From: Methylotuvimicrobium sp. KM2
GTDB lineage: Bacteria; Pseudomonadota; Gammaproteobacteria; Methylococcales; Methylomonadaceae
Length of the DNA stretch: 32,000 bases
Assembly (NCBI RefSeq): GCF_038051925.1
Contig: NZ_CP150634.1
Location: forward strand, 2,518,300-2,550,299
Reading direction: 5' to 3'
Position 1 is the first letter of the stretch; the number at the start of each line of letters is the position of its first letter. The position numbers and the translations under genes are program-made. Of this stretch, positions 527 through 32,000 are shown in pieces. The notes under the pieces are model-generated. The model had not been told where the DNA came from and did no database searches. It saw only the letters and a program-made list of their open reading frames with translations.

Positions 527-3244
527 TCAAAACTCATAAACAAACTCTCCATCCGCCACACCGACATGCACCCTTTCAACTGTCTTCCCTTCCATCATCC
601 GCGTTAAAAACTCGGAGCTGATACTGGGCAAAACTGTATTGGTCAATATCGCGTCGATCATGCGCCCGCCGCTTTCGACTTCGGTACAGCGTTCGGCTAT
701 CAACTTGATGACATCCTCATCATAGGTAAACGGTACTTTATGACTTTCAACAATACGTTTTTCGATACGTTTTAACTGCAATTTCGCGATTGCGGCGATC
801 ATCTCGTCGCTTAACGGGTAATAGGGAATAACGACCAGACGGCCCAACAATGCCGGCGGAAAGACTTTTAGCAACGGTTCCCTCAAGGCTTTGGCAATGC
901 CTTCAGGCTCCGGCATTAAATCCGGGTCTTTACAGAGATTGGCGATCAGCTCGGTACCGGCATTGGTGGTCAAAAGAATCAGCGTATTTTTGAAATCGAT
1001 GACCCGGCCTTCGCCGTCTTCCATCCAGCCTTTATCGAAAACCTGGAAGAAAATTTCATGAACGTCCGGATGCGCTTTTTCGACTTCATCGAGCAATACA
1101 ACAGAATAAGGCCTGCGCCGGACCGCCTCGGTCAACACACCGCCTTCGCCGTATCCGACATAACCCGGAGGCGCACCTTTCAGCGTCGATACGGTATGGG
1201 CTTCCTGGTATTCGCTCATGTTGATTGTGATGACGTTCTGCTCGCCGCCGTACAAGGCTTCGGCCAAGGCTAGAGCGGTTTCGGTCTTGCCGACTCCCGA
1301 CGTGCCGGCCAACATGAACACGCCGATCGGTTTGTTCGGATTATCGAGACCCGCTCGCGAGGTTTGAATTCGCCGCGCTATCATATCCAACGCATGTCGT
1401 TGTCCGATGATTCGTTGCTCGATAGTATCGGCCAGATGAATAATGGTCTCGATTTCATTCTTGACCATTCGCCCGACTGGAATTCCGGTCCAATCGCCGA
1501 CGACGGAAGCCACGGTTTGAGCATCGACGCTCGGTAAAATCAAGGGTGATTCGCCTTGCAAATCATGCAATTGAGATAGCAAGTTTTTTAAATCCTCAAG
1601 CAGTCCATCGCGTGTATTCGATTCGGAATCGACTCCCGCAACTTCTTCAACCGCTTTTTCGAGTTTGCTTTCGGTCCCCTCGACTTTACCGCCTTGCTCT
1701 CGCAGTTTTTGACGAATATCTAAAATGTTTTTGACGAGTTCACGTTCGTTATTCCAGCGCTCTTCCAGCAATGCCAAACGATCTTTTTCGGCTTTCAGTT
1801 TTTCAAGAACAATCGTTTCGCGGTCTTTGATATCGACGCCGACCGACTTTTCTCTGCCGATGATCGCCAATTCGGTATCGAATCCGTTAATCCGTTTTCG
1901 GCAATCATCGACCGCGGCAGGAACGGCATGCTGACTGATGGCTACGCGTGCCGATGCGGTATCGAGCAAACTGACCGATTTATCGGGCAACTGTCTGGCG
2001 GGAATATATCGGTGAGACAACTTTACGGCAGCTTCTAGAGCCTCATCGAGTATTTGAACCTGATGGTGTTTTTCCATGACCGATGCGACACCTCGCATCA
2101 TCAAAATCGCTTTTTCTTCGCTGGGCTCCAGCACTTGCACGACTTGGAAGCGCCGCGTCAATGCCGGATCTTTTTCGATATGTTTCTTATATTCGGCCCA
2201 GGTCGTGGCCGCGACGGTTCTGAGCGTACCGCGCGCCAGCGCCGGTTTCAAAAGGTTCGCGGCATCGCCGGTGCCGGCTGCGCCGCCGGCGCCGACCAAG
2301 GTATGCGCTTCGTCGATGAACAAAATGATAGGTTTTTCGGATGATTGCACTTCCTCGATCACTTGACGCAAGCGGTTCTCGAATTCGCCTTTCATACTAG
2401 CGCCTGCCTGCAGCAAACCGACATCAAGCGTACGCAACGTGACATCCAGCAAGGACGGCGGCACGTCGCCGGCGACGATTTTCTGCGCGAAGCCTTCAAC
2501 GACGGCAGTTTTGCCGACGCCGGCCTCGCCAGTCAGTATCGGATTATTTTGACGGCGACGCATCAAGATGTCGATCACTTGACGTATTTCTTCATCGCGT
2601 CCGACGATCGGGTCCATCTTGCCTTGGCGCGCCTGCTCGGTTAAATCGACCGTGAATTGTTTCAAGGCTTCTTGTTTACCCATCTGAGCCGGCGACATCG
2701 CGCCGCTGGCTTCGCCCGGAACAGCACCTCCCCCGACTTGAAAACCGTCGCTTGAATGCAGCCCTTCTTCAGGCGAGCCGCTGACAATCTCCGCGAAACG
2801 TTCGGTTAAGGTATCCGGCTTGACTTTTCCGAATTCGTTGGAAATTTCCAGCAAGGCATGATTCAAACCCTTTGTTTTAAGAATACCGACAACCAAATGT
2901 CCCGAACGTACCTGCGATTCACCAAACATTAGGGTTCCGTATACCCATCCTCTCTCGACGGCTTCTTCGACATGCGACGATAAATCCGAAATCGATGTGG
3001 AGCCTCTTGGGAGGCGATCCAAAGATTCGGTAAAGTCGCGCGCCAATTTCGACGGGTCGAGATTGAATTGACGAATGATTTTATGGAGATCCGAGTCTTG
3101 CAACTGAAGAATCTGATGCAACCAATGCGTCAGTTCCACGTAAGGATTACCTCGCATTTTACAAAACACGGTCGCCCCCTCAATGGATTTGTAGCACACT
3201 TTATTCAGCTTACCGAATAATGCGACACGGCTGATATCGCCCAT
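527..3244 (-). CDS. tssH: T6SS AAA+ ATPase ClpV (TssH)
   Basis: 905 aa. ClpV-type N-domain (MGDISRVALFGKLNKVCYKSIEGATVFCKMRGNPYVELTHWLHQIL). Two AAA+ modules with Walker A GEAGVGKTA and GTSGVGKTE, Walker B ILFIDEAH and VVLLDEVEKAH. SD-like AGGAG upstream of the ATG. Sits after tssG as in canonical clusters. Confidence 0.95.
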   Translation of the reverse strand: MGDISRVALFGKLNKVCYKSIEGATVFCKMRGNPYVELTHWLHQILQLQDSDLHKIIRQFNLDPSKLARDFTESLDRLPRGSTSISDLSSHVEEAVERGWVYGTLMFGESQVRSGHLVVGILKTKGLNHALLEISNEFGKVKPDTLTERFAEIVSGSPEEGLHSSDGFQVGGGAVPGEASGAMSPAQMGKQEALKQFTVDLTEQARQGKMDPIVGRDEEIRQVIDILMRRRQNNPILTGEAGVGKTAVVEGFAQKIVAGDVPPSLLDVTLRTLDVGLLQAGASMKGEFENRLRQVIEEVQSSEKPIILFIDEAHTLVGAGGAAGTGDAANLLKPALARGTLRTVAATTWAEYKKHIEKDPALTRRFQVVQVLEPSEEKAILMMRGVASVMEKHHQVQILDEALEAAVKLSHRYIPARQLPDKSVSLLDTASARVAISQHAVPAAVDDCRKRINGFDTELAIIGREKSVGVDIKDRETIVLEKLKAEKDRLALLEERWNNERELVKNILDIRQKLREQGGKVEGTESKLEKAVEEVAGVDSESNTRDGLLEDLKNLLSQLHDLQGESPLILPSVDAQTVASVVGDWTGIPVGRMVKNEIETIIHLADTIEQRIIGQRHALDMIARRIQTSRAGLDNPNKPIGVFMLAGTSGVGKTETALALAEALYGGEQNVITINMSEYQEAHTVSTLKGAPPGYVGYGEGGVLTEAVRRRPYSVVLLDEVEKAHPDVHEIFFQVFDKGWMEDGEGRVIDFKNTLILLTTNAGTELIANLCKDPDLMPEPEGIAKALREPLLKVFPPALLGRLVVIPYYPLSDEMIAAIAKLQLKRIEKRIVESHKVPFTYDEDVIKLIAERCTEVESGGRMIDAILTNTVLPSISSEFLTRMMEGKTVERVHVGVADGEFVYEF

Positions 3245-3282
3245 AACTCACTCCTAAAATAATTGTCAAAATGTCCCGTATA

Positions 3283-3442
3283 TATACCTTTCGCACTTCA
3301 AATTTCGGCAGTGCCTGAGGAGGCGCCTGGGTGTCTGATAAAGGCTTTGCCAGCATGGAGCTGGCATAGAGCCTGCATGGACGTATTCACGGCGTCCTTT
3401 AGCAGACACCCAGGGGCCGAATTTTGATCTGCGATGGGTATA
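3283..3442. repeat. Family-2 long palindromic element (TATACC...GGTATA termini), inverted orientation relative to the copies at 7776 and 22882
   Basis: tatacctttcgcacttcaaatttcggcagtgcctgaggaggcgcc ... cccaggggccgaattttgatctgcgatgggtata. The termini are reverse complements of the termini of the 22882-23016 copy. The core agcctgcatggacgtattcacggcgtcc (3370-3397) is the reverse complement of the shared core. Lies between the tssG stop and the clpV start. Confidence 0.85.
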
Positions 3443-3470
3443 CATTCACACTTCAAATTTCGCCAATGCC
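3443..3470. repeat. Solo extra terminal arm of the family-2 element
   Basis: cattcacacttcaaatttcgccaatgcc matches ctttcgcacttcaaatttcggcagtgcc (3289-3316) at about 24 of 28 positions and directly abuts the full copy. Confidence 0.6.
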
Positions 3471-3528
3471 AAGACGCTAATTCCGCTCACGACTTACTGC
3501 TCACTACTCACAAATTTAGATCAACGCA

Positions 3529-4545
3529 TTACCGTATCGGATTCAGCAACAGATCGTTCGCATCTTCGGTGCTGCGCCGCTCACCAAGCCAGCTTGTCCA
3601 ACCCAGTCGCGTGCCGCCGTCCAATTGGCTCATCGGTACCTCGTCATTTTTCAAGATTAGATTGACATCCCAATCAAACTCAAAGCCGCTGTAGTTTCGT
3701 ACGATCGCAATCAGTTTTTCCAGTCGCTGACCTGAAGGCAGCAAACTGTCATACTCTGTTAGGGTCAAAGGGCCGAACAGAATTCGGAATTTATGCTGAC
3801 AACTCCAAACTCGGGAGCCCAATACGACAGACTCGCCTAATCTACCGGTTTGGGTCGATTCACCTAATCGGGTCAAATCCTCGGTTTCAATGTGTAACCA
3901 TTCACCGATGAACTCATTGAGTCGCACCGGTAATTTATAGAAATCGGCCAGGATAGCGATTAGCCCGTCGGCATTTTTTGCCTGATTCGCTAAATGACCT
4001 ATGTAATGAAACTTGGCCAGATCCGGCATCGCATCGCGATCTTGAAACTCCTTATCACCGATCCCGGCTAACGCTCCTAAATAATCGCCGAACCGGTCTT
4101 CATCGGGCCGGTCGAAACTGTAGGCAGGTTCGGCATCCGCTTTGGCGCGATAGAACAATGCAACCATCCGGTGGTGAAAAATATCGCCAAAACGGGCCAA
4201 AGTATGATCATGAAAATTATGCTCCCGGCTTCGCACATATTCGGTCAGATGCAAAGGCATCGGACCGTTGGGTCCGAACAGTCCTAAAAAACGCTGAGTC
4301 AATCGGGCCGGCTTCCCATCGTGAGCTGCTATAAATTGACTCAATGTCGACGACTCAAATGCCATGGAGACTTCTTGACCAAACCTTACCGCGTCGTCTA
4401 CGGGTCGACTGGATTGTCCTATCAGAGGTTTATTGTCATGGCTACATTCAATCAACCGTAAGGCATGAAAAAAATCGTATTGATGCGGCTGTTCGAGTAA
4501 ACCTTCGATTAAATCGTTTTTCTTCGACCTATTCTCGCCGGCCAT
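3529..4545 (-). CDS. tssG: T6SS baseplate subunit TssG
   Basis: 338 aa. N-terminal HQYDFFHALRLIE motif typical of TssG. Overlaps the tssF stop by 37 nt and follows tssF in the canonical tssE-F-G order. Confidence 0.9.
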   Translation of the reverse strand: MAGENRSKKNDLIEGLLEQPHQYDFFHALRLIECSHDNKPLIGQSSRPVDDAVRFGQEVSMAFESSTLSQFIAAHDGKPARLTQRFLGLFGPNGPMPLHLTEYVRSREHNFHDHTLARFGDIFHHRMVALFYRAKADAEPAYSFDRPDEDRFGDYLGALAGIGDKEFQDRDAMPDLAKFHYIGHLANQAKNADGLIAILADFYKLPVRLNEFIGEWLHIETEDLTRLGESTQTGRLGESVVLGSRVWSCQHKFRILFGPLTLTEYDSLLPSGQRLEKLIAIVRNYSGFEFDWDVNLILKNDEVPMSQLDGGTRLGWTSWLGERRSTEDANDLLLNPIR

Positions 4546-6389
4546 CTGATGATTTCTCCACGATCCGTGGACTTGACCACGGTTTCGGTAAACGAGTTAA
4601 TTGAAACATAGCGGGCTAAAAAATTTTCCAGCACTGCTCCCATCAAGAAGACCCCGCTGCCTTCAAAAGCGGACTCTTCGAAGTTCAAGGTTATTTCTAA
4701 GCCGCGCCCAAAAACGATGGGACCGGCCGTATTGATCCGCCTAACGATATCTTTCGCTTGAATCGACAACAATCCCTCGATCTGATTAGTAATAGCGGCG
4801 ACATTGTATTCGCTATATAACCTCAATAAACTTCTCAGAGCGACGGCACCTTCTTTGTCATTACGGTCGATTATACTTAAATAGTTCATCGACAAATGAT
4901 TGATTAAACTCCAATTGACATTGCCATAGGCGGTCGATGCCCGAGGTTTAGTAGGGCCTGAAAGGCAACGAATGCTTTGGACCGGCGCGCCCTTCTGCAT
5001 CGTGAAATCGGTTTTTCCGCCGCCCAGCGGCATCAGCAACGGTAAATCTCGATTACTACAAAGCGCCTTGATTGATAGCTGTTTAAGGTCTTTACCGTAA
5101 GGTGCCGATTGCCCGTCGACCAGCGAAATAAACGTCTCATTGCCGATATAACTCGATCTCGGCCCTTGACGTTTTTGTTTCGACGAAGCTATCCGTTGTT
5201 GCCGATGTAACGAATAATAAGCGGGCCGGACGTCATGACTTCGTTCGTCGCTGTATCGATAAAACGGCTGAAATTCCTTTTTTTCATTGACGCCCCCGCT
5301 CCCAATGCCAATGACTTCTTTGACTTGGCAAATTTCAAAGTCCATAGGTCTGGAGCGGTCCGGAATGATATGAAATTCGGACGACTTATGATCGATATAA
5401 ATAGGGTCCGCATGCTTGGGAAACAAATTGATAGCCGGTGTACAAAACAACGCAAATTGAGATCTATCGACGGCATTAATAAGTTTTGCGTGACTTCGTT
5501 TTAGTAGAACGATTAAATCCATCTCTTCGGCGTCGCACTGATTCAACGCTTGATCGAAACCTGTGAATTCCGCAAACATAAAGCGTTCCGGAAAGGCAAA
5601 GTATTCTTGCAGAAGACGGTACCCCTGGAAAGATCGAGGCGAATAATTGAACAAGGCTTCTTCATCGGAAAAGCCGATTCGGTTTATCGCATTATCTTTG
5701 ACTAAATGTTGCCAGCGATAAGGTTTTTCTGTCGGCTGCATGCAAACGGCTAACGAATCGCCAATCAATTGTTCATACAAGTGCATCGGCAATTCGCCAT
5801 GCCCTCGTAAAAAAACGGGTAAGGAATCCAGCTTTAACTCATTGAATTTCAAACCTGCCGTGGTTTTCAGCCGGATGCGAATCGCGGCTTTCACCCCGCT
5901 CAGATTATGTGAGCAGAGGTTTGCCACGGCACCAAGATTGGGCAGATATTCCGCCTCGTGGATTTGCAAAGGCCAGAGTTTTATTTCGTGCGCGGTGCGA
6001 TATTCGCAGGGAGTTTGTTCGCCTTTAGTCGTCTGGCTGCGTAGGGCGGTTGCTCTTTCTATCGTAAAACCTTCATTTAACGAACCTTCCGTTAAATCGG
6101 GTTGAAATTGCACGACGGCCACCGACGGAGTCGGCTCGAGATAATTCGGGTATATCATTTCCAGCAAATGCTGGGTAAATCGCGGAAACTCGGCATCGAG
6201 CTTCAATTGGACGCGTGCCGCTAAAAAGGCAAAACCTTCCAATAATCTTTCGACATAAGGATCTGCGCATTCAAAGCTATCCATGCCCAAGCGCGCTGCA
6301 ATCTTGGGAAATTCGACGGCAAATTCGCCGCCCATTTCCCTCAAATGGTGCAGCTCCGTGTTGTAATAGCGCAATAATTTCGGGTCCAT
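4509..6389 (-). CDS. tssF: T6SS baseplate subunit TssF
   Basis: 626 aa. N-terminus MDPKLLRYYNTELHHLREMGGEFAVEFPKIAARLG is the characteristic TssF start. Position between tssE and tssG. Confidence 0.93.
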   Translation of the reverse strand: MDPKLLRYYNTELHHLREMGGEFAVEFPKIAARLGMDSFECADPYVERLLEGFAFLAARVQLKLDAEFPRFTQHLLEMIYPNYLEPTPSVAVVQFQPDLTEGSLNEGFTIERATALRSQTTKGEQTPCEYRTAHEIKLWPLQIHEAEYLPNLGAVANLCSHNLSGVKAAIRIRLKTTAGLKFNELKLDSLPVFLRGHGELPMHLYEQLIGDSLAVCMQPTEKPYRWQHLVKDNAINRIGFSDEEALFNYSPRSFQGYRLLQEYFAFPERFMFAEFTGFDQALNQCDAEEMDLIVLLKRSHAKLINAVDRSQFALFCTPAINLFPKHADPIYIDHKSSEFHIIPDRSRPMDFEICQVKEVIGIGSGGVNEKKEFQPFYRYSDERSHDVRPAYYSLHRQQRIASSKQKRQGPRSSYIGNETFISLVDGQSAPYGKDLKQLSIKALCSNRDLPLLMPLGGGKTDFTMQKGAPVQSIRCLSGPTKPRASTAYGNVNWSLINHLSMNYLSIIDRNDKEGAVALRSLLRLYSEYNVAAITNQIEGLLSIQAKDIVRRINTAGPIVFGRGLEITLNFEESAFEGSGVFLMGAVLENFLARYVSINSFTETVVKSTDRGEIIRWPARIGRRKTI

Positions 6390-6392
6390 GCC

Positions 6393-6893
6393 TTAGCCGC
6401 CCATGTCACGTAGATTCACGTCGCCGGTCAATACATCGATCTCAGTCCGTAAATAAAGATGTATCGGAAGGGGCTGCGCCCAAAGATTGGCTTCGATGTC
6501 GAAGCTGATAGCTTGCTGATTCATGACATCCGCCGACAATACTTTGACTGTCAAACTATGAGGTAAAATACGCGGCTCAAAGACGGTAATGGCTTGCTTA
6601 AGTTTTTTTTCGATATCGGTTAAATCCGCGCCGACTACGGAAGTCCCCGCCAGATTTTGTATGCCGAAATTGATAACCGACTGAGCGACTTCCGGATAAT
6701 CCGTTAAATCGGCAACGGACTCGAACGAATCGGCATTCAATAGCCAGGAAACGTCGCGCAGAACCGACTGCCTCAATTTCTGCATCGATAACACCCGCTT
6801 ATCTCTGGATTCAACCTGAGTGTTCGGCTCATCATCCGTCAATCGATCGAGTAACGAGGGTTGGAGGCGTTCTTTTTGGGTTAGTTCGGCCAT
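6393..6893 (-). CDS. tssE: T6SS baseplate subunit TssE (gp25/GPW-like)
   Basis: 166 aa. LQPSLLDRLTDDEP and SVLRDVSWLLN motifs typical of gp25-like TssE. The stop lies 3 nt upstream of the tssF start. Confidence 0.9.
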   Translation of the reverse strand: MAELTQKERLQPSLLDRLTDDEPNTQVESRDKRVLSMQKLRQSVLRDVSWLLNADSFESVADLTDYPEVAQSVINFGIQNLAGTSVVGADLTDIEKKLKQAITVFEPRILPHSLTVKVLSADVMNQQAISFDIEANLWAQPLPIHLYLRTEIDVLTGDVNLRDMGG

Positions 6894-6896
6894 GAC

Positions 6897-7700
6897 TTAT
6901 GTGTTATCAGTGCCATCAAAACTAATTTCACGGACATCCATCAAGGCATAATCATTGTGATTAGTGCTTAATAAGCGCTGTCCCAGACCGATGAACAGCC
7001 CTTCATGCGGCTCTTGCCATTCAGTCTTGCGCGCCAGTTGAATAGCCGCATCCGGATTAGTTTCGGAGTTGACATAACGTGTCGGAATAAATCCGACCGC
7101 TTCGCCGCCATTTTGCCAAGCAAAATGCACAGGCATCCAAACTAAATCACGCAGGTCTTCGGGCAATTCTATTTGGATAGTTTTGATATGCTGAAAGGGA
7201 ACCCAATAATATTGTCCATTGATGATGGCTTCGAGCATGGGGCCGAGCCGGACATCGGCATCCGCCAACCAGTCAAAACGCTCGCCGTCAATCGAACCGG
7301 CAGTTGCCGGAGCACTGTCGAAGGCTTGATTGCGCAGGTTTTGAGCTTCCTGGTATTTTTCTTGCGCTGTGAGGTTAAGGGCTTGCAACAACAAAGCCAT
7401 CCATTGTTGAGGCTCGCCGAAAATCAACGGTGTTTTTAAGCCTAAGAAAACTTCTTTACGCAATACTTCGCAACGAAGCGCCTCACGATAGGTTTGTACC
7501 ATCGCCAGAGTTGCAGCATCCATTTCAGCCAAGACATTGAGTTGGGTCAACGCTCTTTCCCATTGACCTAAAACCGATAATAACTGAAAGAGGAAAATTC
7601 TATTTTTGATATTGGCCGGATCTTTTCTTAGGGCCTGTTGAATATCGGCCAATGCTTGTTCCAGATTGCCGTCTTTCAATGCTTGTTCACTGTTTAACAT
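6897..7700 (-). CDS. tagJ: T6SS accessory protein TagJ (ImpE family, TPR-like N-domain)
   Basis: The track ORF runs 6897-7793, but its first 31 codons run into and partly overlap the repeat at 7776-8002. The ATG at 7700-7698 gives MLNSEQALKDGNLEQALADIQQALRKDPANIKNRIFLFQLLSVLGQWERA, an ImpE-like N-terminus. Position between hcp and tssE as in H1-type clusters. Confidence 0.8.
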   Translation of the reverse strand: MLNSEQALKDGNLEQALADIQQALRKDPANIKNRIFLFQLLSVLGQWERALTQLNVLAEMDAATLAMVQTYREALRCEVLRKEVFLGLKTPLIFGEPQQWMALLLQALNLTAQEKYQEAQNLRNQAFDSAPATAGSIDGERFDWLADADVRLGPMLEAIINGQYYWVPFQHIKTIQIELPEDLRDLVWMPVHFAWQNGGEAVGFIPTRYVNSETNPDAAIQLARKTEWQEPHEGLFIGLGQRLLSTNHNDYALMDVREISFDGTDNT

Positions 7701-7775
7701 GTATCGGTCCTCGGCTAGCGTCAATCCGTATCGATAAAAAATGGGCGGCATAAACCGCCCATTCGAAAGGATGAG

Positions 7776-8002
7776 ATACCCTTCGTAGATCAAAATTCGG
7801 CGCCAGGGTGCCCGTCAAAGGACGCCGTAAACCCAGCCCTAAATTATCCAAGTTAGCTAACCATAGTCAGTGAGCTATGGAATTTAGGTGCTGGGTAAAT
7901 ACATCCATGTAGGCTCTATGCCAGCTCCATGCTGGCAAAGCCTTTGACGAGCACCCTGGCGCCTCCTTAGGCATTACCGAAATTTGAGGTGCGAAAGGTA
8001 TA
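7776..8002. repeat. Family-2 long palindromic element carrying a nested ~66-nt palindromic insertion
   Basis: The termini atacccttcgtagatcaaaattcggc ... gccgaaatttgaggtgcgaaaggtata can pair with each other. The shared core is split: ggacgccgt | aaacccagccctaaatt...aatttaggtgctgggt | aaatacatccatgtaggct. Lies between the hcp stop and the tagJ start. Confidence 0.85.
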
Positions 8003-8076
8003 ACTCCTTTAATTCATTCGCCTAGCTGAACGTTCAAAAAACACTACAACCACTATTCAGCCAGAACGGGGAGTTA

Positions 8077-8568
8077 TCAGATTTTATTTTTGGCTTTATT
8101 GGTTTTTAAATCATAACCTTTAGCTTCACCTTTTTTGACAGTGCCGCCTTCTTCGAATTGGTTATATTGTAATGTGATACCAACATAGTTGATGGAAAAG
8201 GATTCATTCGGCCTTTCACCTCCACTGCTCATGCTATAGCTGCTGATCAGCGGTTTTTCTAAAATAATTTCCACAAACTCTTGTCCGGAAACGTCTTTTC
8301 CGCCTGTTTGAATAAAATGAAAAGTGGCTTTATCCAGTGTTTTACCGCATGCCGCTTCCTGCATTAATTGAGCAGAGGCAATATCCATACTTTTAGTGCA
8401 TGTAACTTCGGAAAAGGATGGGTTACTGGTGTCACGGTCGGCGCCGGTTCCGCTAGAGCTAACGGCGCGCCCGGTCCCCCATTGCACTGAGTCTATGGTT
8501 ATCCAACCATCATGCTTATCGACTTTGGAATCGCCTTTCAATTCAGGTTCAAATTTTAATAAGATCAT
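8077..8568 (-). CDS. hcp: T6SS tube protein Hcp (TssD)
   Basis: 163 aa. ILLKFEPELKGDSKVDKHDGWITIDSVQWG matches the Hcp N-terminal signature (KGES/D...H...I...S..WG). Immediately downstream of tssBC. Confidence 0.9.
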   Translation of the reverse strand: MILLKFEPELKGDSKVDKHDGWITIDSVQWGTGRAVSSSGTGADRDTSNPSFSEVTCTKSMDIASAQLMQEAACGKTLDKATFHFIQTGGKDVSGQEFVEIILEKPLISSYSMSSGGERPNESFSINYVGITLQYNQFEEGGTVKKGEAKGYDLKTNKAKNKI

Positions 8569-8684
8569 TGTTTATCCTCATAATTTACAGAAATAAAATT
8601 ACAAACTGCTGATGAATAATTTCAAAGGGGATTTAACTATTTTCCAAGAGAGTTTATCTATCGCTTAACCCCCTCTTACAATCA

Positions 8685-10184
8685 TCAACCGCCTTTTTGT
8701 GAAGGCAATTTGGAAGTGAGTCGTAAGGAAACAGTCAAGCCTTCCAACTGATAATGCGGTCTCAAATAAAATTTAGACGCATAGTACCCAGGATTACCTT
8801 CGACTTCTTCAACGACCACCTCTGCGGCAGACAAAGGACGAATGGCTTTATCCTCTTCCGTCGCCAATGCCGGATTGGTCAAAACGTAATTACTGATCCA
8901 GCTATTGAGCCATCTTTCCATATCGGCACGCTCTTTGAACGACCCGATTTTATCCCTAACGATACATTTCAAATAATGCGCGAATCGGCAAGTTGCGAAC
9001 AAATACGGCAATCTGGCAGCCAGGTTAGCATTTGCCGTTGCATCGGGATCGTCATATTCGGCCGGTTTATGCAGCGACTGCGCACCGATAAATGCGGCGA
9101 AATCCGAATTCTTCTTGTGAATCAATGGCATGAATCCTGATTTAGCCAATTCCGCTTCGCGGCGGTCGCTAATCGCGATCTCGGTCGGACACTTCATATC
9201 GACGCCGCCGTCATCGGTTGGGAAGGTATGGACAGGCAAACCTTCTACCGCACCGCCGGACTCTATGCCGCGAATTCTTGAGCACCAGCCATACAGTTTA
9301 AATGAGCGGTTAATGTTGGTCGCCATCGCATAGGCAGCGTTAGACCAAGTATAATTGGCGCTGTTGGCCGCTTCGGTATTTTCTTCGAAATCGAATTCCT
9401 CAACCGGATCGGTTTTTGCTCCATAAGGTAGACGGGACAAAAATCTCGGCATCGCCATTCCCAAATATTTGGAATCGTCGGAATCTCGTAACGATCGCCA
9501 AGCCGCATACTCGGGGGTGGAAAAGATTTTGGTCAAATCTCTAGGGTTAGCTAATTCACCCCATGAGTCCATTTGCAATGTAGTCGGCGACAAACCGGTA
9601 ATAAACGGCGCATGCGATGCGGCGGAAATTTTCGCAATTTGATTCAATAATTCGACGTCGGGTGGTGAATGATCGAAATAATAGTCTCCCATTAAACAGC
9701 CGAAGGGTTCGCCGCCGAACTGACCATATTCTTCTTCATACAATTTTTTGAACATGGGACTCTGATCCCAAGCAGTCCCTTTGAACTTCTTGAGAGTCTT
9801 ACCCAGCTCATTCTTTGAGATGTTCATCACCCGAATTTTAAGCATCTCGTCGGTTTCGGTATTATTGACCAGATAATGCAGTCCTCGCCAAGTGCCTTCT
9901 AGTTTTTTAAAGTCTTCATGATGAAGTATTTTGTTGATTTGTTCGGTCAATTTACTGTCGATTTGCGCGATGATAGACTCAATCGAAGCTATCGCGTCAT
10001 CGGATACCAACGAAGTATCCTTTAAAACAAATTCGGCAAGCGTTTGAACCGCGCTTTCAACTTCTTCTTTCGCTCGGTCGGATTTCGGTTTAAATTCCTT
10101 GGTCAATAATGCCGAAAAATCACTGACTTCGGCAACCTCTCCAGTCGTGACTTCTGCTTCTGTTGCTTGTTCTGCTTCAGCCAT
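8685..10184 (-). CDS. tssC: T6SS contractile sheath large subunit TssC (VipB)
   Basis: 499 aa, typical TssC length and sequence (LEGTWRGLHYLV, GGEPFG, AKISAASHAPFI, PRFLSRLPYG). Strong SD (AGGAGGAG) before the ATG. Starts 4 nt after the tssB stop. Confidence 0.95.
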   Translation of the reverse strand: MAEAEQATEAEVTTGEVAEVSDFSALLTKEFKPKSDRAKEEVESAVQTLAEFVLKDTSLVSDDAIASIESIIAQIDSKLTEQINKILHHEDFKKLEGTWRGLHYLVNNTETDEMLKIRVMNISKNELGKTLKKFKGTAWDQSPMFKKLYEEEYGQFGGEPFGCLMGDYYFDHSPPDVELLNQIAKISAASHAPFITGLSPTTLQMDSWGELANPRDLTKIFSTPEYAAWRSLRDSDDSKYLGMAMPRFLSRLPYGAKTDPVEEFDFEENTEAANSANYTWSNAAYAMATNINRSFKLYGWCSRIRGIESGGAVEGLPVHTFPTDDGGVDMKCPTEIAISDRREAELAKSGFMPLIHKKNSDFAAFIGAQSLHKPAEYDDPDATANANLAARLPYLFATCRFAHYLKCIVRDKIGSFKERADMERWLNSWISNYVLTNPALATEEDKAIRPLSAAEVVVEEVEGNPGYYASKFYLRPHYQLEGLTVSLRLTSKLPSQKGG

Positions 10185-22881: not shown

Positions 22882-23016
22882 ATACCCTTCGTAGATCAAA
22901 ATTCGGCACAGGGGGCCCGCCAAAGGACGCCGTGAATACGTCCATGTAGGCTCTTTGCCAGCCCCCCCCCCTGTGCCTCCTTAGGCACTGCCGAAATTTG
23001 AAGTGCGAAAGGTATA
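22882..23016. repeat. Family-2 long palindromic element (shortest, reference copy)
   Basis: atacccttcgtagatcaaaattcggcacagggggcccgccaaaggacgccgtgaatacgtccatgtaggctctttgccagcc(C10)tgtgcctccttaggcactgccgaaatttgaagtgcgaaaggtata. By hand pairing, about 19 of 23 positions of the terminal arms pair, counting one G-U. Confidence 0.85.
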
Positions 23017-23143
23017 ATCAAAGCCAGATGGATGCGTATTAAGGCATTTTCTAGCGTGTCGCGCCGAAGTTCGACTCAAAAAGGGTATGACCTTTCATCA
23101 TCGCCATAATATGGCGTCATCATCACTCACGGTAAATACAGGA

Positions 23144-23857: not shown

Positions 23858-23941
23858 CTTGATACCGATATTAACGTATATATGAGGAGTTGGTGGTGCT
23901 GGATTTCTCGACGAACCTACTTCTCATCCTCTAAGGATCTC

Positions 23942-24128
23942 GTAACAAATAGCTTCCTTTAGCTATGTGCTTTGTAGCGGGTTCGGCAACTCGCTTGACA
24001 GGACGCCGTGAATACATTCCGTGTAGGCTTGACGGCGGCTTTCCCTGCCGCCGACACCTGTCAATCGAGCTACCGAACCTGCCTGCCCTATATTAAAAAT
24101 AGGGAAGTTATTTATAACCGAATCCTAA
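23942..24128. repeat. Family-1 nested palindromic element, intergenic copy
   Basis: The inner inverted repeats are ggttcggcaactcgcttgacagg (23980-24002) and cctgtcaatcgagctaccgaacc (ends at 24079). The outer arms acaaatagcttcctttag and tagggaagttatttat are imperfectly complementary. The core ggacgccgtgaatacattccgtgtaggct (24001-24029) is shared with family 2. Confidence 0.8.
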
Positions 24129-26633: not shown

Positions 26634-27656
26634 TCAATCAAAAACACAGCTGTTATTGACCTTGATGGCAAAGGCAGGATGCGTTCTCTGCCATCGGTCG
26701 CGGCTGATAATCAAATTGTCTTCGTATTCCTGTTTGATATGAATATGAGCATAAATTCGTTGGGCTTTTTTATAACGAGGCCTGATTAAAGCATTTAGGG
26801 TTTTGATTGCCAATTGTTTTTTAAAAGCCTCCGCTCTTATTTCGCTAGAAAAAACACCTAATGAAATATCTCCCTTAACTTCGCCTTTCCGGAACAGCCA
26901 ATAATCGGTAATTCCTTTTTGTTTCAAAAGTTCAACATTTTCCAATGATTGTTCATAAGTTTCACCGGCCGGCAAGTACACCATGTAATCGCTAATCTTT
27001 TGCTCTTCTCGGCGCACCGATTTGATCGAAGCGGAATTGATGCCCGTCTGTTTTCGCCAGCTGTAAAATTGCTGCATCGTATCGAACGGCCCGGCCTCAT
27101 AACACATACTGGACTCAACCTTGTTTTTTTTAGGCGCCATTTCTTGTTTTTTAACAATCGGGGCGTTTGCGGCGTCAATGTCGGTTCCGCCAAGTTCTTG
27201 TTTGGCACGACGATTGGTTTCATCCGAAATACTGGTTTTTGGGGGTGTTGGAGTTGCCTTAGTCAAGGCTATCGAAGCATCGTTGAAAGCAAGAATGGGG
27301 GGTGATTTTTTTGGCCGGGTTTGAGATATCTGATGTGAAACGAAATGCATATCGAGCCATTCGGCCAACAGCAAACTGGACCTGACCCCCGAAGAAGGCG
27401 CTAAACTATAATCTGAAACGAATATAGCACTGCGAATCGATTGCTCAATCGCCGTACCGGCGGCACACCATGATAACCCGGATTGCGCTTGCTTAAGGCT
27501 CGGTGAGTCGTTTAGTTCCGAAACCAGGATAATTTGCTCTCTTGTATCCGCTGAATTAATGAGAACATCACGCTCCAATGAAATAGTGCCTGAATGATAT
27601 TGCCATAAAAAAAAAGTGATATTGAGCATTATTAGCAATAAGGCCAAAAGTTTCAT
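26634..27656 (-). CDS. SPOR domain-containing membrane protein
   Basis: 340 aa. N-terminal TM helix (LLALLLIMLNITFFLW), a low-complexity linker and a C-terminal SPOR-like repeat (CYEAGPF...DYMVYLP...GDISLGVFSSEIRAEAFKKQL). Sits downstream of birA-coaX, an arrangement I recall from memory as common in gammaproteobacteria. Confidence 0.7.
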   Translation of the reverse strand: MKLLALLLIMLNITFFLWQYHSGTISLERDVLINSADTREQIILVSELNDSPSLKQAQSGLSWCAAGTAIEQSIRSAIFVSDYSLAPSSGVRSSLLLAEWLDMHFVSHQISQTRPKKSPPILAFNDASIALTKATPTPPKTSISDETNRRAKQELGGTDIDAANAPIVKKQEMAPKKNKVESSMCYEAGPFDTMQQFYSWRKQTGINSASIKSVRREEQKISDYMVYLPAGETYEQSLENVELLKQKGITDYWLFRKGEVKGDISLGVFSSEIRAEAFKKQLAIKTLNALIRPRYKKAQRIYAHIHIKQEYEDNLIISRDRWQRTHPAFAIKVNNSCVFD

Positions 27657-27659
27657 AGC

Positions 27660-28571
27660 TTATTCCGCGAGAATCAATGACAAGCCTTTTAAGACCAAGT
27701 CCGGTACAACACAAGATACATTATCAAGATGAGGGGCAATATCGCCCGCGTCTCCACCGGTTAAAACTAACTTAGGATTTCGTGATAAATAACGTCCTGG
27801 AACTATGAGTTTTTTTGAGGGTTCGGTAACTCGATTGACAGGGCGCCGTGAATACTTCCGTGTAGACTTGACGACGGCTTTCCCTGTTTCTGACACCTGC
27901 CGATCGAGCAAGCGATCTCTCTGTAAAATGGGTAAGTTATTTACGGCTAAATCCTTAACAGGCTTGTTTAAATCTGCTATCAAGCTCTTAATCATACCGA
28001 TGACGGCATAAAGGGCGCCATTATCAATAGCATCGCTCGTATTTCGAGCCAAGACCGGTAAACCGCTTTGTGCGGAAAGCTGTAAATTGGCCGTGCCATT
28101 TGACAGCGAATGCTTCATTAAGGTTAAACCCGGACAAATGAGCCCTCCCAAATGACAACCGTTGCGGTCCATTACATCAATGGTAATGGCGGTCCCGCAG
28201 TCGACGATACAGACCGGTTCCGACCAGTAATGCCTGGCCGCTATTAGACACAGCCAACGATCCACGCCCAGTTTTTCCGGAAATTCATAAGCATTCCGAA
28301 CACCATACGCTTCGGCTACGGAATGAGCTTGTATTATGGACATAGAAGGCCACAGGTCCAGAGCAATTGTCTTGACTTGATCTAATACGGCATTCGAAGC
28401 CACGCAGGAAATAGCCATACGCCGCGGCGATTTCGGCAAGGCTCGCCAAGTGGAAAACAACCGGGCTTCAAAATCACTATCTTGATGAATAACAGGCACT
28501 CCCGGTTCTAAACGAATATCGTTATATCCCCACTTTACACGAGAGTTACCGATATCGACCAATAAGTCCAT
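27660..28571 (-). CDS. coaX: Type III pantothenate kinase CoaX carrying an in-frame ~58-aa insertion derived from a palindromic repeat
   Basis: 303 aa. DIGNSRVKWG, GVDRW, VDCGTAITID and LTGGDA motifs of type III PanK. Residues about 206-263 (KDLAVNNLPILQRDRLLDRQVSETGKAVVKSTRKYSRRPVNRVTEPSKKLIVPGRYLS) are encoded by the family-1 repeat. Without them the protein is about 245 aa, close to the roughly 250 aa I recall as typical of type III PanK. Confidence 0.9.
   Translation of the reverse strand: MDLLVDIGNSRVKWGYNDIRLEPGVPVIHQDSDFEARLFSTWRALPKSPRRMAISCVASNAVLDQVKTIALDLWPSMSIIQAHSVAEAYGVRNAYEFPEKLGVDRWLCLIAARHYWSEPVCIVDCGTAITIDVMDRNGCHLGGLICPGLTLMKHSLSNGTANLQLSAQSGLPVLARNTSDAIDNGALYAVIGMIKSLIADLNKPVKDLAVNNLPILQRDRLLDRQVSETGKAVVKSTRKYSRRPVNRVTEPSKKLIVPGRYLSRNPKLVLTGGDAGDIAPHLDNVSCVVPDLVLKGLSLILAE
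27782..27957. repeat. Family-1 nested palindromic element, intragenic copy inside coaX
   Basis: gtgataaataacgtcctggaactatgag...gggttcggtaactcgattgacagggcgccgtgaatacttccgtgtagacttgacgacggctttccctgtttctgacacctgccgatcgagcaagcgatc...aaaatgggtaagttatttacggctaaatcc aligns base-for-base over most of its length with 23942-24128, in the same orientation on the plus strand. Confidence 0.8.
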
Positions 28572-28575
28572 TCGG

Positions 28576-29565
28576 TCAATTCTTGCTAAAACTTACTTCG
28601 CCGGATGCAAAACAACAGGCTTTGCCGTCGGCAATCATTAAACGAAACAGGCCATTATCGTCGATTCCTCCAGCATTGCCTGTTATTGCAGAATCGCCAT
28701 GATAGATAACGACAGGACGGCCTTCCAGGCAATCGTAAGATCGCCATTCATCTAAATAAGGTTTTAAGCCATGGTTTTCGTAATCGGCAAGTATCGGCAA
28801 TAATTCATTCAACAACGTTCCTGCTAAACGATTTCTCGAAATGGATATCCCTCCCATAATCCGAGTCAAATCGATCCAAGCTTGATCGATCATTGCCGCT
28901 TCACGATCCGGCATATAAATATTCAACCCGATACCGATCACAGCCGCGCAAGGCCCATGAGTCTCCCCGGTCACTTCGATTAATATCCCGCCTAATTTAT
29001 GTTCCTGCCAATAAATATCGTTCGGCCATTTTAAACCGATACCGGATAAACCTAAGGATGCCAAGGCCCTGATCACGGAAACGCCGACAGCAAGACTCAA
29101 GCCTGAAATAGCGGACGGGCCGTTGTGAAAGTGCCACAAGAGCGACAGGTAAATATTTGAACCGAACGGCGAGACCCAGGACCTACCTCGCCGGCCTTTA
29201 CCTGCAGTTTGAAACTCAGCTAAACAAACCGCCCCGGATCGGGCTGCGCATTTAGCTTGATTGATCAAATGGTTATTCGTTGAATCAAGCCGGTCATGGA
29301 TGTTTAAATCCGAAATGCTCAAGCGAACACTCTCCATCAACACGGATTCGATTTTTTCACTGCTTAAAAATTCGATCGGGCGTTCTAGGCGGTAACCCTT
29401 GCCGCTCACTGCGATGGGCTCCAAGCCTAGTTCGGTTAAACTGTGTAACTGTTTCCAAACCGCCGATCTGCTCACACCGAGAGTATCGGCTAAAATAGAA
29501 CCCGAATGAAATTCGCCGTCGGCAAGGATCCCCAGAATTTTTTTTTGTTGATCGGTAATTGTCAC
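28576..29565 (-). CDS. birA: Bifunctional biotin-[acetyl-CoA-carboxylase] ligase / biotin operon repressor BirA
   Basis: 329 aa. N-terminal winged-HTH (GEFHSGSILADTLGVSRSAVWKQLHSL) and the biotin-binding loop GKGRRGRSW. The stop lies 4 nt upstream of the coaX start. Confidence 0.9.
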   Translation of the reverse strand: MTITDQQKKILGILADGEFHSGSILADTLGVSRSAVWKQLHSLTELGLEPIAVSGKGYRLERPIEFLSSEKIESVLMESVRLSISDLNIHDRLDSTNNHLINQAKCAARSGAVCLAEFQTAGKGRRGRSWVSPFGSNIYLSLLWHFHNGPSAISGLSLAVGVSVIRALASLGLSGIGLKWPNDIYWQEHKLGGILIEVTGETHGPCAAVIGIGLNIYMPDREAAMIDQAWIDLTRIMGGISISRNRLAGTLLNELLPILADYENHGLKPYLDEWRSYDCLEGRPVVIYHGDSAITGNAGGIDDNGLFRLMIADGKACCFASGEVSFSKN

Positions 29566-31879: not shown

Positions 31880-31953
31880 ATTTAACCTCTTCGTAATAAT
31901 GGATAATCAATCAGAACATTGAACAAACTCATTTGAGTCGCCCCCCCTTTTTT

Positions 31954-32000
31954 ATACCCTCGCAGATCAAAATTCGTCGCTGAAGTAACCGCGAAAGTCA
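31954..32000. repeat. Family-2 palindromic element, left arm only (truncated by the window end)
   Basis: ataccctcgcagatcaaaattcgtcgc matches the left terminus atacccttcgtagatcaaaattcggc of the copies at 7776 and 22882. Confidence 0.6.

Follow-up and report, generated by a model that had tools for sequence, protein, structure and literature searches.

In-frame insertion of mobile repeats into bacterial protein genes was described for the Rickettsia palindromic elements (RPEs; Ogata et al. 2000, 2002, as summarised in PMC10969869). It has also been documented beyond Rickettsia, for intragenic ERIC, for QMITE1 of Coxiella and for the MITEs of Anabaena (review PMC10969869), the MITEs of Anabaena PCC 7120 and of other bacteria having been reported in in-frame fusions (PMC10969869, PMC5896051). 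A sequence-only reading of the 32,000-nt stretch of DNA analysed here (the window) had proposed that a palindromic repeat inside coaX behaves like the RPEs. This likeness was borne out, in that a mobile palindromic repeat with terminal inverted repeats (TIRs), a target-site duplication (TSD), dispersed copies and empty sites lies in frame in an intact coaX. The same reading had taken such behaviour to be undescribed both for elements of this kind and for coaX. For coaX this held, as the literature that we searched contained no report of such an insertion in that gene, nor any of MITEs in Methylotuvimicrobium or Methylomicrobium; for the kind of element it did not, ERIC, QMITE1 and the Anabaena MITEs being precedents.

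A MITE copy in coaX and its family

The gene, its neighbours and the two repeat copies compared here are as follows, in window coordinates.

28576..29565, minus strand: birA, the upstream gene of the coaX gene string (NCBIfam NF008847, 319 bits versus a cut-off of 293)
27660..28571, minus strand: coaX (type III pantothenate kinase), 303 aa, with the insertion at codons 206-266
26634..27656, minus strand: gene of 340 aa with no family match, starting 4 nt past the coaX stop
27772..27774, plus strand: left TSD, TTA (TAA on the coding strand), present as a single TAA/CAA in empty sites
27775..27954, plus strand: MITE copy in coaX, 180 nt (alignment of filled and empty sites; nhmmer match 27774-27955)
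27775..27793, plus strand: left TIR, GGATTTCGTGATAAATAAC, 19 nt (read from the sequence; conserved in the family)
27936..27954, plus strand: right TIR, GTTATTTACGGCTAAATCC, 19 nt (read from the sequence; conserved in the family)
27955..27957, plus strand: right TSD, TTA (sequence, empty-site alignment and family flanks)
23935..24125, plus strand: intergenic copy of the same MITE family, 191-nt subfamily (MAFFT, BLASTN)
23932-23934 and 24126-24128, plus strand: TAA duplications around the intergenic copy (sequence and family flanks)

In the ORF list the 303-aa coaX frame (27660-28571, minus strand) runs without interruption. Its product matched Pfam PF03309 Pan_kinase (E 1e-44) and NCBIfam TIGR00671 (118 bits versus a cut-off of 58), with a profile alignment that breaks near residue 200 and restarts near residue 265. 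At all 32 positions that are invariant among 121 aligned CoaX sequences the residue was retained (D6, G8, N9, K13, D104, G126, T130, G272 and G273 among them), and conserved catalytic/ASKHA motifs of CoaX were present on either side of the insert, confirming the earlier description of an unbroken frame with the motifs of a type III pantothenate kinase (PanK-III). The synteny with birA is kept in all related coaX loci, and the 340-aa downstream gene adjoins coaX in all of them.

The insertion comprises exactly 183 nt, that is, the 180-nt element plus a 3-nt TSD. The segment had previously been taken to begin at 27782, a position that we correct to 27772 for the TSD and 27775 for the element. 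Within the window copy, GGATTTCGTGATAAATAAC matches the reverse complement of GTTATTTACGGCTAAATCC at 15 of 19 positions. The inserted peptide spans residues 206-266 (KDLAV...SRNP), and a count from the sequence gave 15 K/R versus 5 D/E; the extra residues are thus basic, as had been noted, but number 61 rather than ~58. Without them CoaX would be 242 aa long, and its closest insert-free orthologues have 242-243 aa, in agreement with the earlier estimate that the insert-free length is close to that of an ordinary CoaX. Relative to the consensus of the 180-nt subfamily, the coaX copy carries 21 differences (row L001_10617, from a locus with a coaX identical to that of the window).

The coaX segment had also been described as a second copy of the intergenic repeat, and this was upheld by a column identity of 83% (MAFFT) and by a BLASTN match within the window (80.8% over 146 nt, E 8.7e-34). 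The earlier bounds of the intergenic copy (23942-24128) are corrected as well: the element occupies 23935-24125 with TAA flanks, and 24126-24128 is its right TSD. The two copies share their orientation on the plus strand, and coaX reads the element on the minus strand. Folded as ssDNA, the intergenic copy forms a strong, nested palindrome (z = -6.3); the coaX copy folds weakly (z = -2.55), its palindrome having decayed.

A 22-nt core of the element, GCTTTCCCTGCCGCCGACNCCTG, was matched exactly in 98 8-kb blocks of a species-representative genome collection, of which Methylotuvimicrobium sp. KM1 contributed 35, wino1 29, M. buryatense 5G 22, a single Methylomicrobium MAG 10 and two other MAGs one each (the split per genome being our own count from the locus list). 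Exact matches to the core were found only in Methylotuvimicrobium or Methylomicrobium and these three MAGs. An nhmmer profile built from five element copies gave 273 matches in the 921 kb of fetched loci. Identical TTA or TAA flanks bordered 38 of 39 clean, full-length, non-redundant copies, of which 23 were exactly 180 nt long (sizes were mostly 178-193 nt), and ATA and TAG flanks were seen in a few further copies. The ends of the element were conserved across family copies, and its sole open frame encodes a 61-aa peptide that has no domain match and leaves no capacity to code for a transposase. Because the element is small, has TIRs and a fixed 3-nt duplication, occurs in many dispersed copies and is polymorphic between filled and empty sites, the coaX segment is a non-autonomous DNA transposon (MITE), from a family abundant in Methylotuvimicrobium. 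It is not a known structured RNA, as no Rfam family was matched at gathering thresholds anywhere in the window.

The 921 kb sampled contained no TIR pair 400-4000 nt apart with a transposase between its ends. The scan gave two pairs, and inspection of the ORFs in one of them, L103, led us to reject it as an autonomous parent, because the pair consists of two separate MITEs flanking ordinary genes. BLASTN gave no match to an autonomous partner on plasmids, and a promoter/terminator scan of 27500-28700 found nothing inside the element. A search with the 61-aa consensus peptide turned up no further host gene, its nine matches all being hypothetical proteins of 70-103 aa; this is a weak negative, given that the known CoaX carriers were missed too. 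Intergenic MITE copies are annotated as 'hypothetical proteins' of 70-103 aa (P0121-P0129; NCBI, ENA, JGI), calls that arise because the element has an open frame; copies of the family have in this way been miscalled in public databases.

Among ~250 merged matches in 921 kb, only the coaX copy was truly intragenic, six other spanning ORFs having been inspected by translation (L022, L025, L026 and L057, of 109-124 codons, were left out). All six were rejected as intragenic insertions: the element lies upstream of the real start codon at L053 and L058, the ORFs at L075, L098 and L088 are composed of tandem partial elements, and L081 offers no recognisable host gene. The 180-nt copy at L053 6850-7030 (Methylomicrobium sp. 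wino1, CP024202.1 ~2046850-2047030) lies just upstream of the start of a gene (MDIYLIRHTQ...) that by eye resembles a histidine-phosphatase gene. This copy is open in the coaX frame, and a start codon upstream of it could give the gene an N-terminal extension.

Two other repeats were noted. Larger MITEs harbour a palindromic mini-element of 64-65 nt that has the ends CCCAGCACCTAAATT / AATTTAGGTGCTGGG, and a second repeat family in the window, with other ends (ATACCCTTCG... / ...CGAAAGGTAT), has a 28-nt core, GGACGCCGTGAATACGTCCATGTAGGCT, in common with the coaX-type element.

Window 7832-7895: copy of the mini-element, with flanks TAAA at 7828-7831 and 7896-7899
L007 12057-12121, L001 3676-3752 and many other loci: further copies of the mini-element
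Window 3283-3441: copy of the second repeat family
Window 7776-8003: copy of the second repeat family
Window 22882-23017: copy of the second repeat family
Window 31953-32000: copy of the second repeat family

There were 59 unique copies of the mini-element in 921 kb, nearly all of them at the same spot of a shared core, between GCCGT[G/A]AA and TAC, and the 4-nt duplication is either TGAA or TAAA, its two copies varying together. The occurrence of the mini-element in either orientation with respect to the core implies that it has inserted site-specifically at least twice, and one larger MITE has been inserted inside a mini-element (L069 4274-4464). The mini-element could represent an undescribed target-specific transposition system.

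Filled and empty sites and the age of the insertion

The empty site, ...AAGCCTGT TAA GTTAGTT..., is found in Methylomicrobium sp. wino1 (CP024202.1) and in two metagenomic lineages (L010, L012), with the triplet CAA instead of TAA in one metagenomic lineage. The filled sites are longer than the empty ones by exactly 183 nt, or the element plus one copy of the TSD, the TAA standing on both sides when the site is filled and once when it is empty. The same insertion with the same geometry is present in the coaX genes of M. buryatense 5G (L043) and strain KM1 (L047), and altogether we found six carrier haplotypes: those of the window, 5G, KM1, a MAG and two metagenomic contigs. An assembly artefact can be ruled out, because the insertion is carried, with co-diverging sequences, by the complete chromosome of KM1 (NZ_CP173170.1), a 5-Mb scaffold of 5G and at least six independent metagenome assemblies.

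In a neighbour-joining tree of 2722 gap-free, insert-free columns from birA, coaX and the downstream gene, the six carriers formed one clade (bootstrap 1.0) with the empty-site lineages outside it. The maximum distance inside the clade was 0.107, so several species share the insertion. The monophyly of the carriers, together with distances of up to 10.7% between them, speaks for a single old insertion, in an ancestor shared by the six carrier lineages. By parsimony, the 183-nt insert has accumulated at least 61 substitutions with zero stops and zero indels. An open insert had earlier been thought to mean that it was either 'selected to be translatable or very recent'. Neither branch was sustained, as the insertion appears old, judged by its six lineages and its substitutions, and its readability is intrinsic to the subfamily (see below).

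We also considered whether the segment might be an ancestral CoaX domain that was lost elsewhere, or a stretch that resembles the intergenic repeat by chance, a reading that has nothing in its favour beyond the open reading frame. In the 121-sequence alignment the linker between G192 and G272 measured 17-19 residues in 117 sequences and 79 in 4 carriers. The insert was absent from wino1, P0004, P0006 and 114 more distant Pan_kinase homologues (the named members of which belong to the Methylococcales or other Gammaproteobacteria), leaving a clean 61-aa gap in close and distant CoaX alike. Because 117 aligned homologues are without it, the segment is an insertion and not a lost ancestral domain; moreover, the carriers form a single shallow clade, and sister genomes have kept the exact empty site. 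Chance resemblance is contradicted by the TIRs and TSD, by dozens of matching intergenic copies and by the BLASTN match between the two window copies. Empty sites, family copies, tree and linker lengths together refute both versions of this reading, and we regard its probability as negligible.

The open frame and the fate of the insert

Because 180 + 3 nt make 61 codons, a canonical copy never shifts the frame of its host. The consensus of the 180-nt subfamily is open in the frame used by coaX (KDLVVNNFPILRRVRLLDWQVSAAGKAAVKPTRTYSRRPAKRVTEPSTKLIVPGRYLSRNP) and in none of the other five. Among the 33 non-coaX copies, that frame was open in 7, as compared with 0-1 of 33 for the other five frames. 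These empirical frame statistics replace, as the null expectation, the 6% chance that had been calculated for an open stretch of 58 codons. With one of six consensus frames open, ~1/6 of the insertions of a fresh copy into a coding TAA/TTA would spare the host ORF, and the real filter is the protein's tolerance of 61 extra residues. In the coaX phase the TAA duplications straddle codons (GTT AAG ... CCT AAG) and are therefore out of frame. An antisense ORF of 68 aa (27805-28011, plus strand) lies mostly inside the coaX copy; it is probably spurious, because the model-orientation frames of the element are closed in all 33 non-coaX copies.

An AF2 model of CoaX made from the 121-sequence alignment (mean pLDDT 85.7, pTM 0.80) placed the insert between the long helix 178-202 and the strand 267-271 (KLVLTGG), which leads into the nucleotide-binding GG/TGGDA motif. 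The pLDDT was >90 in the kinase core, with block means of 40-66 over residues ~203-264. The top Foldseek matches of the model were all PanK-III structures (target-normalised TM 0.78-0.86; 5b8h, 4o8k, 2f9t, 3djc), and the least conserved residues of the linker region were 199-205 and 267, which flank the insertion site. The 61-residue insert is thus predicted to be largely disordered, to lie in a sequence-variable linker and to leave the kinase core undisturbed.

The coaX copies have diverged further from the subfamily consensus than the intergenic ones (14-23 versus 4-14 differences). Among carriers, the insert had a mean omega of 0.63, as compared with 0.19 in the N-terminal kinase part, and its dN was ~three times as high (0.108 versus 0.039). 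Measured against their own consensus, the coaX copies had an omega of 0.75; as a control, non-coding members of the same subfamily translated in the coaX frame had a pseudo-omega of 0.88 (Fisher p = 0.75). Predicted RNA folding was weaker in the coaX copies (-60 versus -80 kcal/mol for the others), a difference that may reflect age or relaxed structure and is no proof of selection against hairpins, the six coaX copies not being independent. The last 37 codons of coaX had a dS of 0.025 among carriers, compared with 0.205 in the N-terminal part, and nucleotide diversity was 0.03-0.05 across the junction between coaX and the downstream gene. As far as these substitution patterns can tell, the insert peptide is shown to be a passenger of which only the open frame is maintained, presumably because the conserved C-terminal 37 residues must still be translated. 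There may be weak constraint on the peptide, in that its omega of 0.63-0.75 is somewhat below 1 over few sites.

The low diversity of 27592-27711, which covers the 3′ end of coaX and the start of the downstream gene, suggests constraint at the nucleotide level, e.g. through translational coupling or a signal that serves the downstream gene.

We consider it very probable that the coaX MITE is a tolerated selfish insertion, without a function of its own, in a functional and transcribed coaX. A transposase supplied in trans would have inserted a 180-nt copy into the TAA across coaX codons 205/206 (GT-TAA-G), duplicating the TAA (a mechanism deduced from the TIRs and TSD only). The event would predate the split of M. 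buryatense 5G, strain KM1, the window organism and three further uncultured lineages, having taken place in their common ancestor. The element entered in the sole orientation and phase in which its consensus is without a stop. The insert has since drifted as a passenger, with its amino acids changing about as freely as those of the non-coding copies and its palindrome decaying. Stops and frameshifts have been kept out, presumably since the essential C-terminal 37 residues need to be translated.

Retention of the insert could also be explained if a basic, disordered loop of 61 residues had acquired a role in CoaX, such as regulation, localisation, or the binding of nucleic acid or protein. Such a role would fit the absence of stops and indels after so many substitutions (the probability of zero stops under neutrality being 0.03-0.07), the omega nominally below 1, and a helix at 216-228 that is predicted with low confidence. 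We nevertheless hold exaptation to be improbable, because an open frame was already needed to translate the conserved C-terminal TGGDA strand, the omega of the insert cannot be told apart from the value for non-coding copies, and its dN is well above that of the N-terminal kinase part. In addition, the peptide matches no known domain and is the mere translation of the element consensus. If co-option were true, a transposon would have endowed an essential enzyme of the CoA pathway with a new disordered segment, specific to the lineage and serving in regulation or binding. Less probable still is that the carrier coaX is decaying or dispensable, having been inactivated by the insertion while another pantothenate kinase is active. 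The N-terminal omega is typical of a constrained gene, all of the invariant CoaX columns are retained, the C-terminal 37 codons are almost unchanged, and the ORF has stayed intact in six lineages that are up to 10.7% apart. Moreover, the carrier gene METBUDRAFT_0869 of M. buryatense 5GB1C is transcribed at the level of its neighbours (RNA-seq baseMean 2287-9443; PMC5652258 Table S1). In the metabolic-model supplements no gene is assigned to the PNTK reaction, and the literature search returned nothing on pantothenate kinase in M. buryatense.

If coaX is, as we prefer to read it, a working gene with a tolerated selfish insertion, its filled and empty sites document a selfish element that added 61 residues to an essential enzyme and persisted across species. 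The locus is then a natural experiment in how a protein tolerates an insertion and how coding sequence arises from a transposon. The carriers include M. buryatense 5G/5GB1, an engineered and genetically tractable model methanotroph, and the MITE insertion explains the odd 303-aa annotation of CoaX in carrier genomes.

Comparison with known in-frame repeats and transposons

The coaX element resembles the RPEs in being palindromic and ~150-180 nt long, in lying in frame in a housekeeping or metabolic gene, in adding a peptide that fits the fold of its host and in being kept across species. It differs from them in three respects. The frequent genic residence of RPEs is not seen here, where a single copy among the ~250 matches in 921 kb is truly intragenic; clear TIRs and a 3-nt TWA duplication mark the methanotroph family; and its host is a free-living gammaproteobacterial methanotroph, whereas Rickettsia is an obligate intracellular alphaproteobacterium. 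By its genic frequency, host and TIR/TSD architecture, the coaX element is therefore set apart and is probably not an RPE in the family sense.

Transposons of the IS5 / PIF-Harbinger type make a 3-nt target duplication of the form TNA/TWA. The 3-nt TTA/TAA duplication of the coaX element and its short TIRs beginning with GG presumably resemble those of some IS5-family subgroups, a likeness that we treat as a lead only. Unlike in transposons of that type, no transposase gene bounded by the TIRs of the coaX element was found in the 921 kb sampled or on plasmids.

The coaX element has much in common with ERIC, QMITE1 and the Anabaena MITEs, which are likewise non-autonomous, have a TIR/TSD architecture and are mostly intergenic, and whose fortuitous open frame occasionally extends or interrupts a host ORF in frame. 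It nonetheless belongs to a different family, seen only in Methylotuvimicrobium/Methylomicrobium and a few MAGs, and its host gene is coaX. The coaX case works in the same way as the in-frame repeats already documented, and is mechanistically ordinary.
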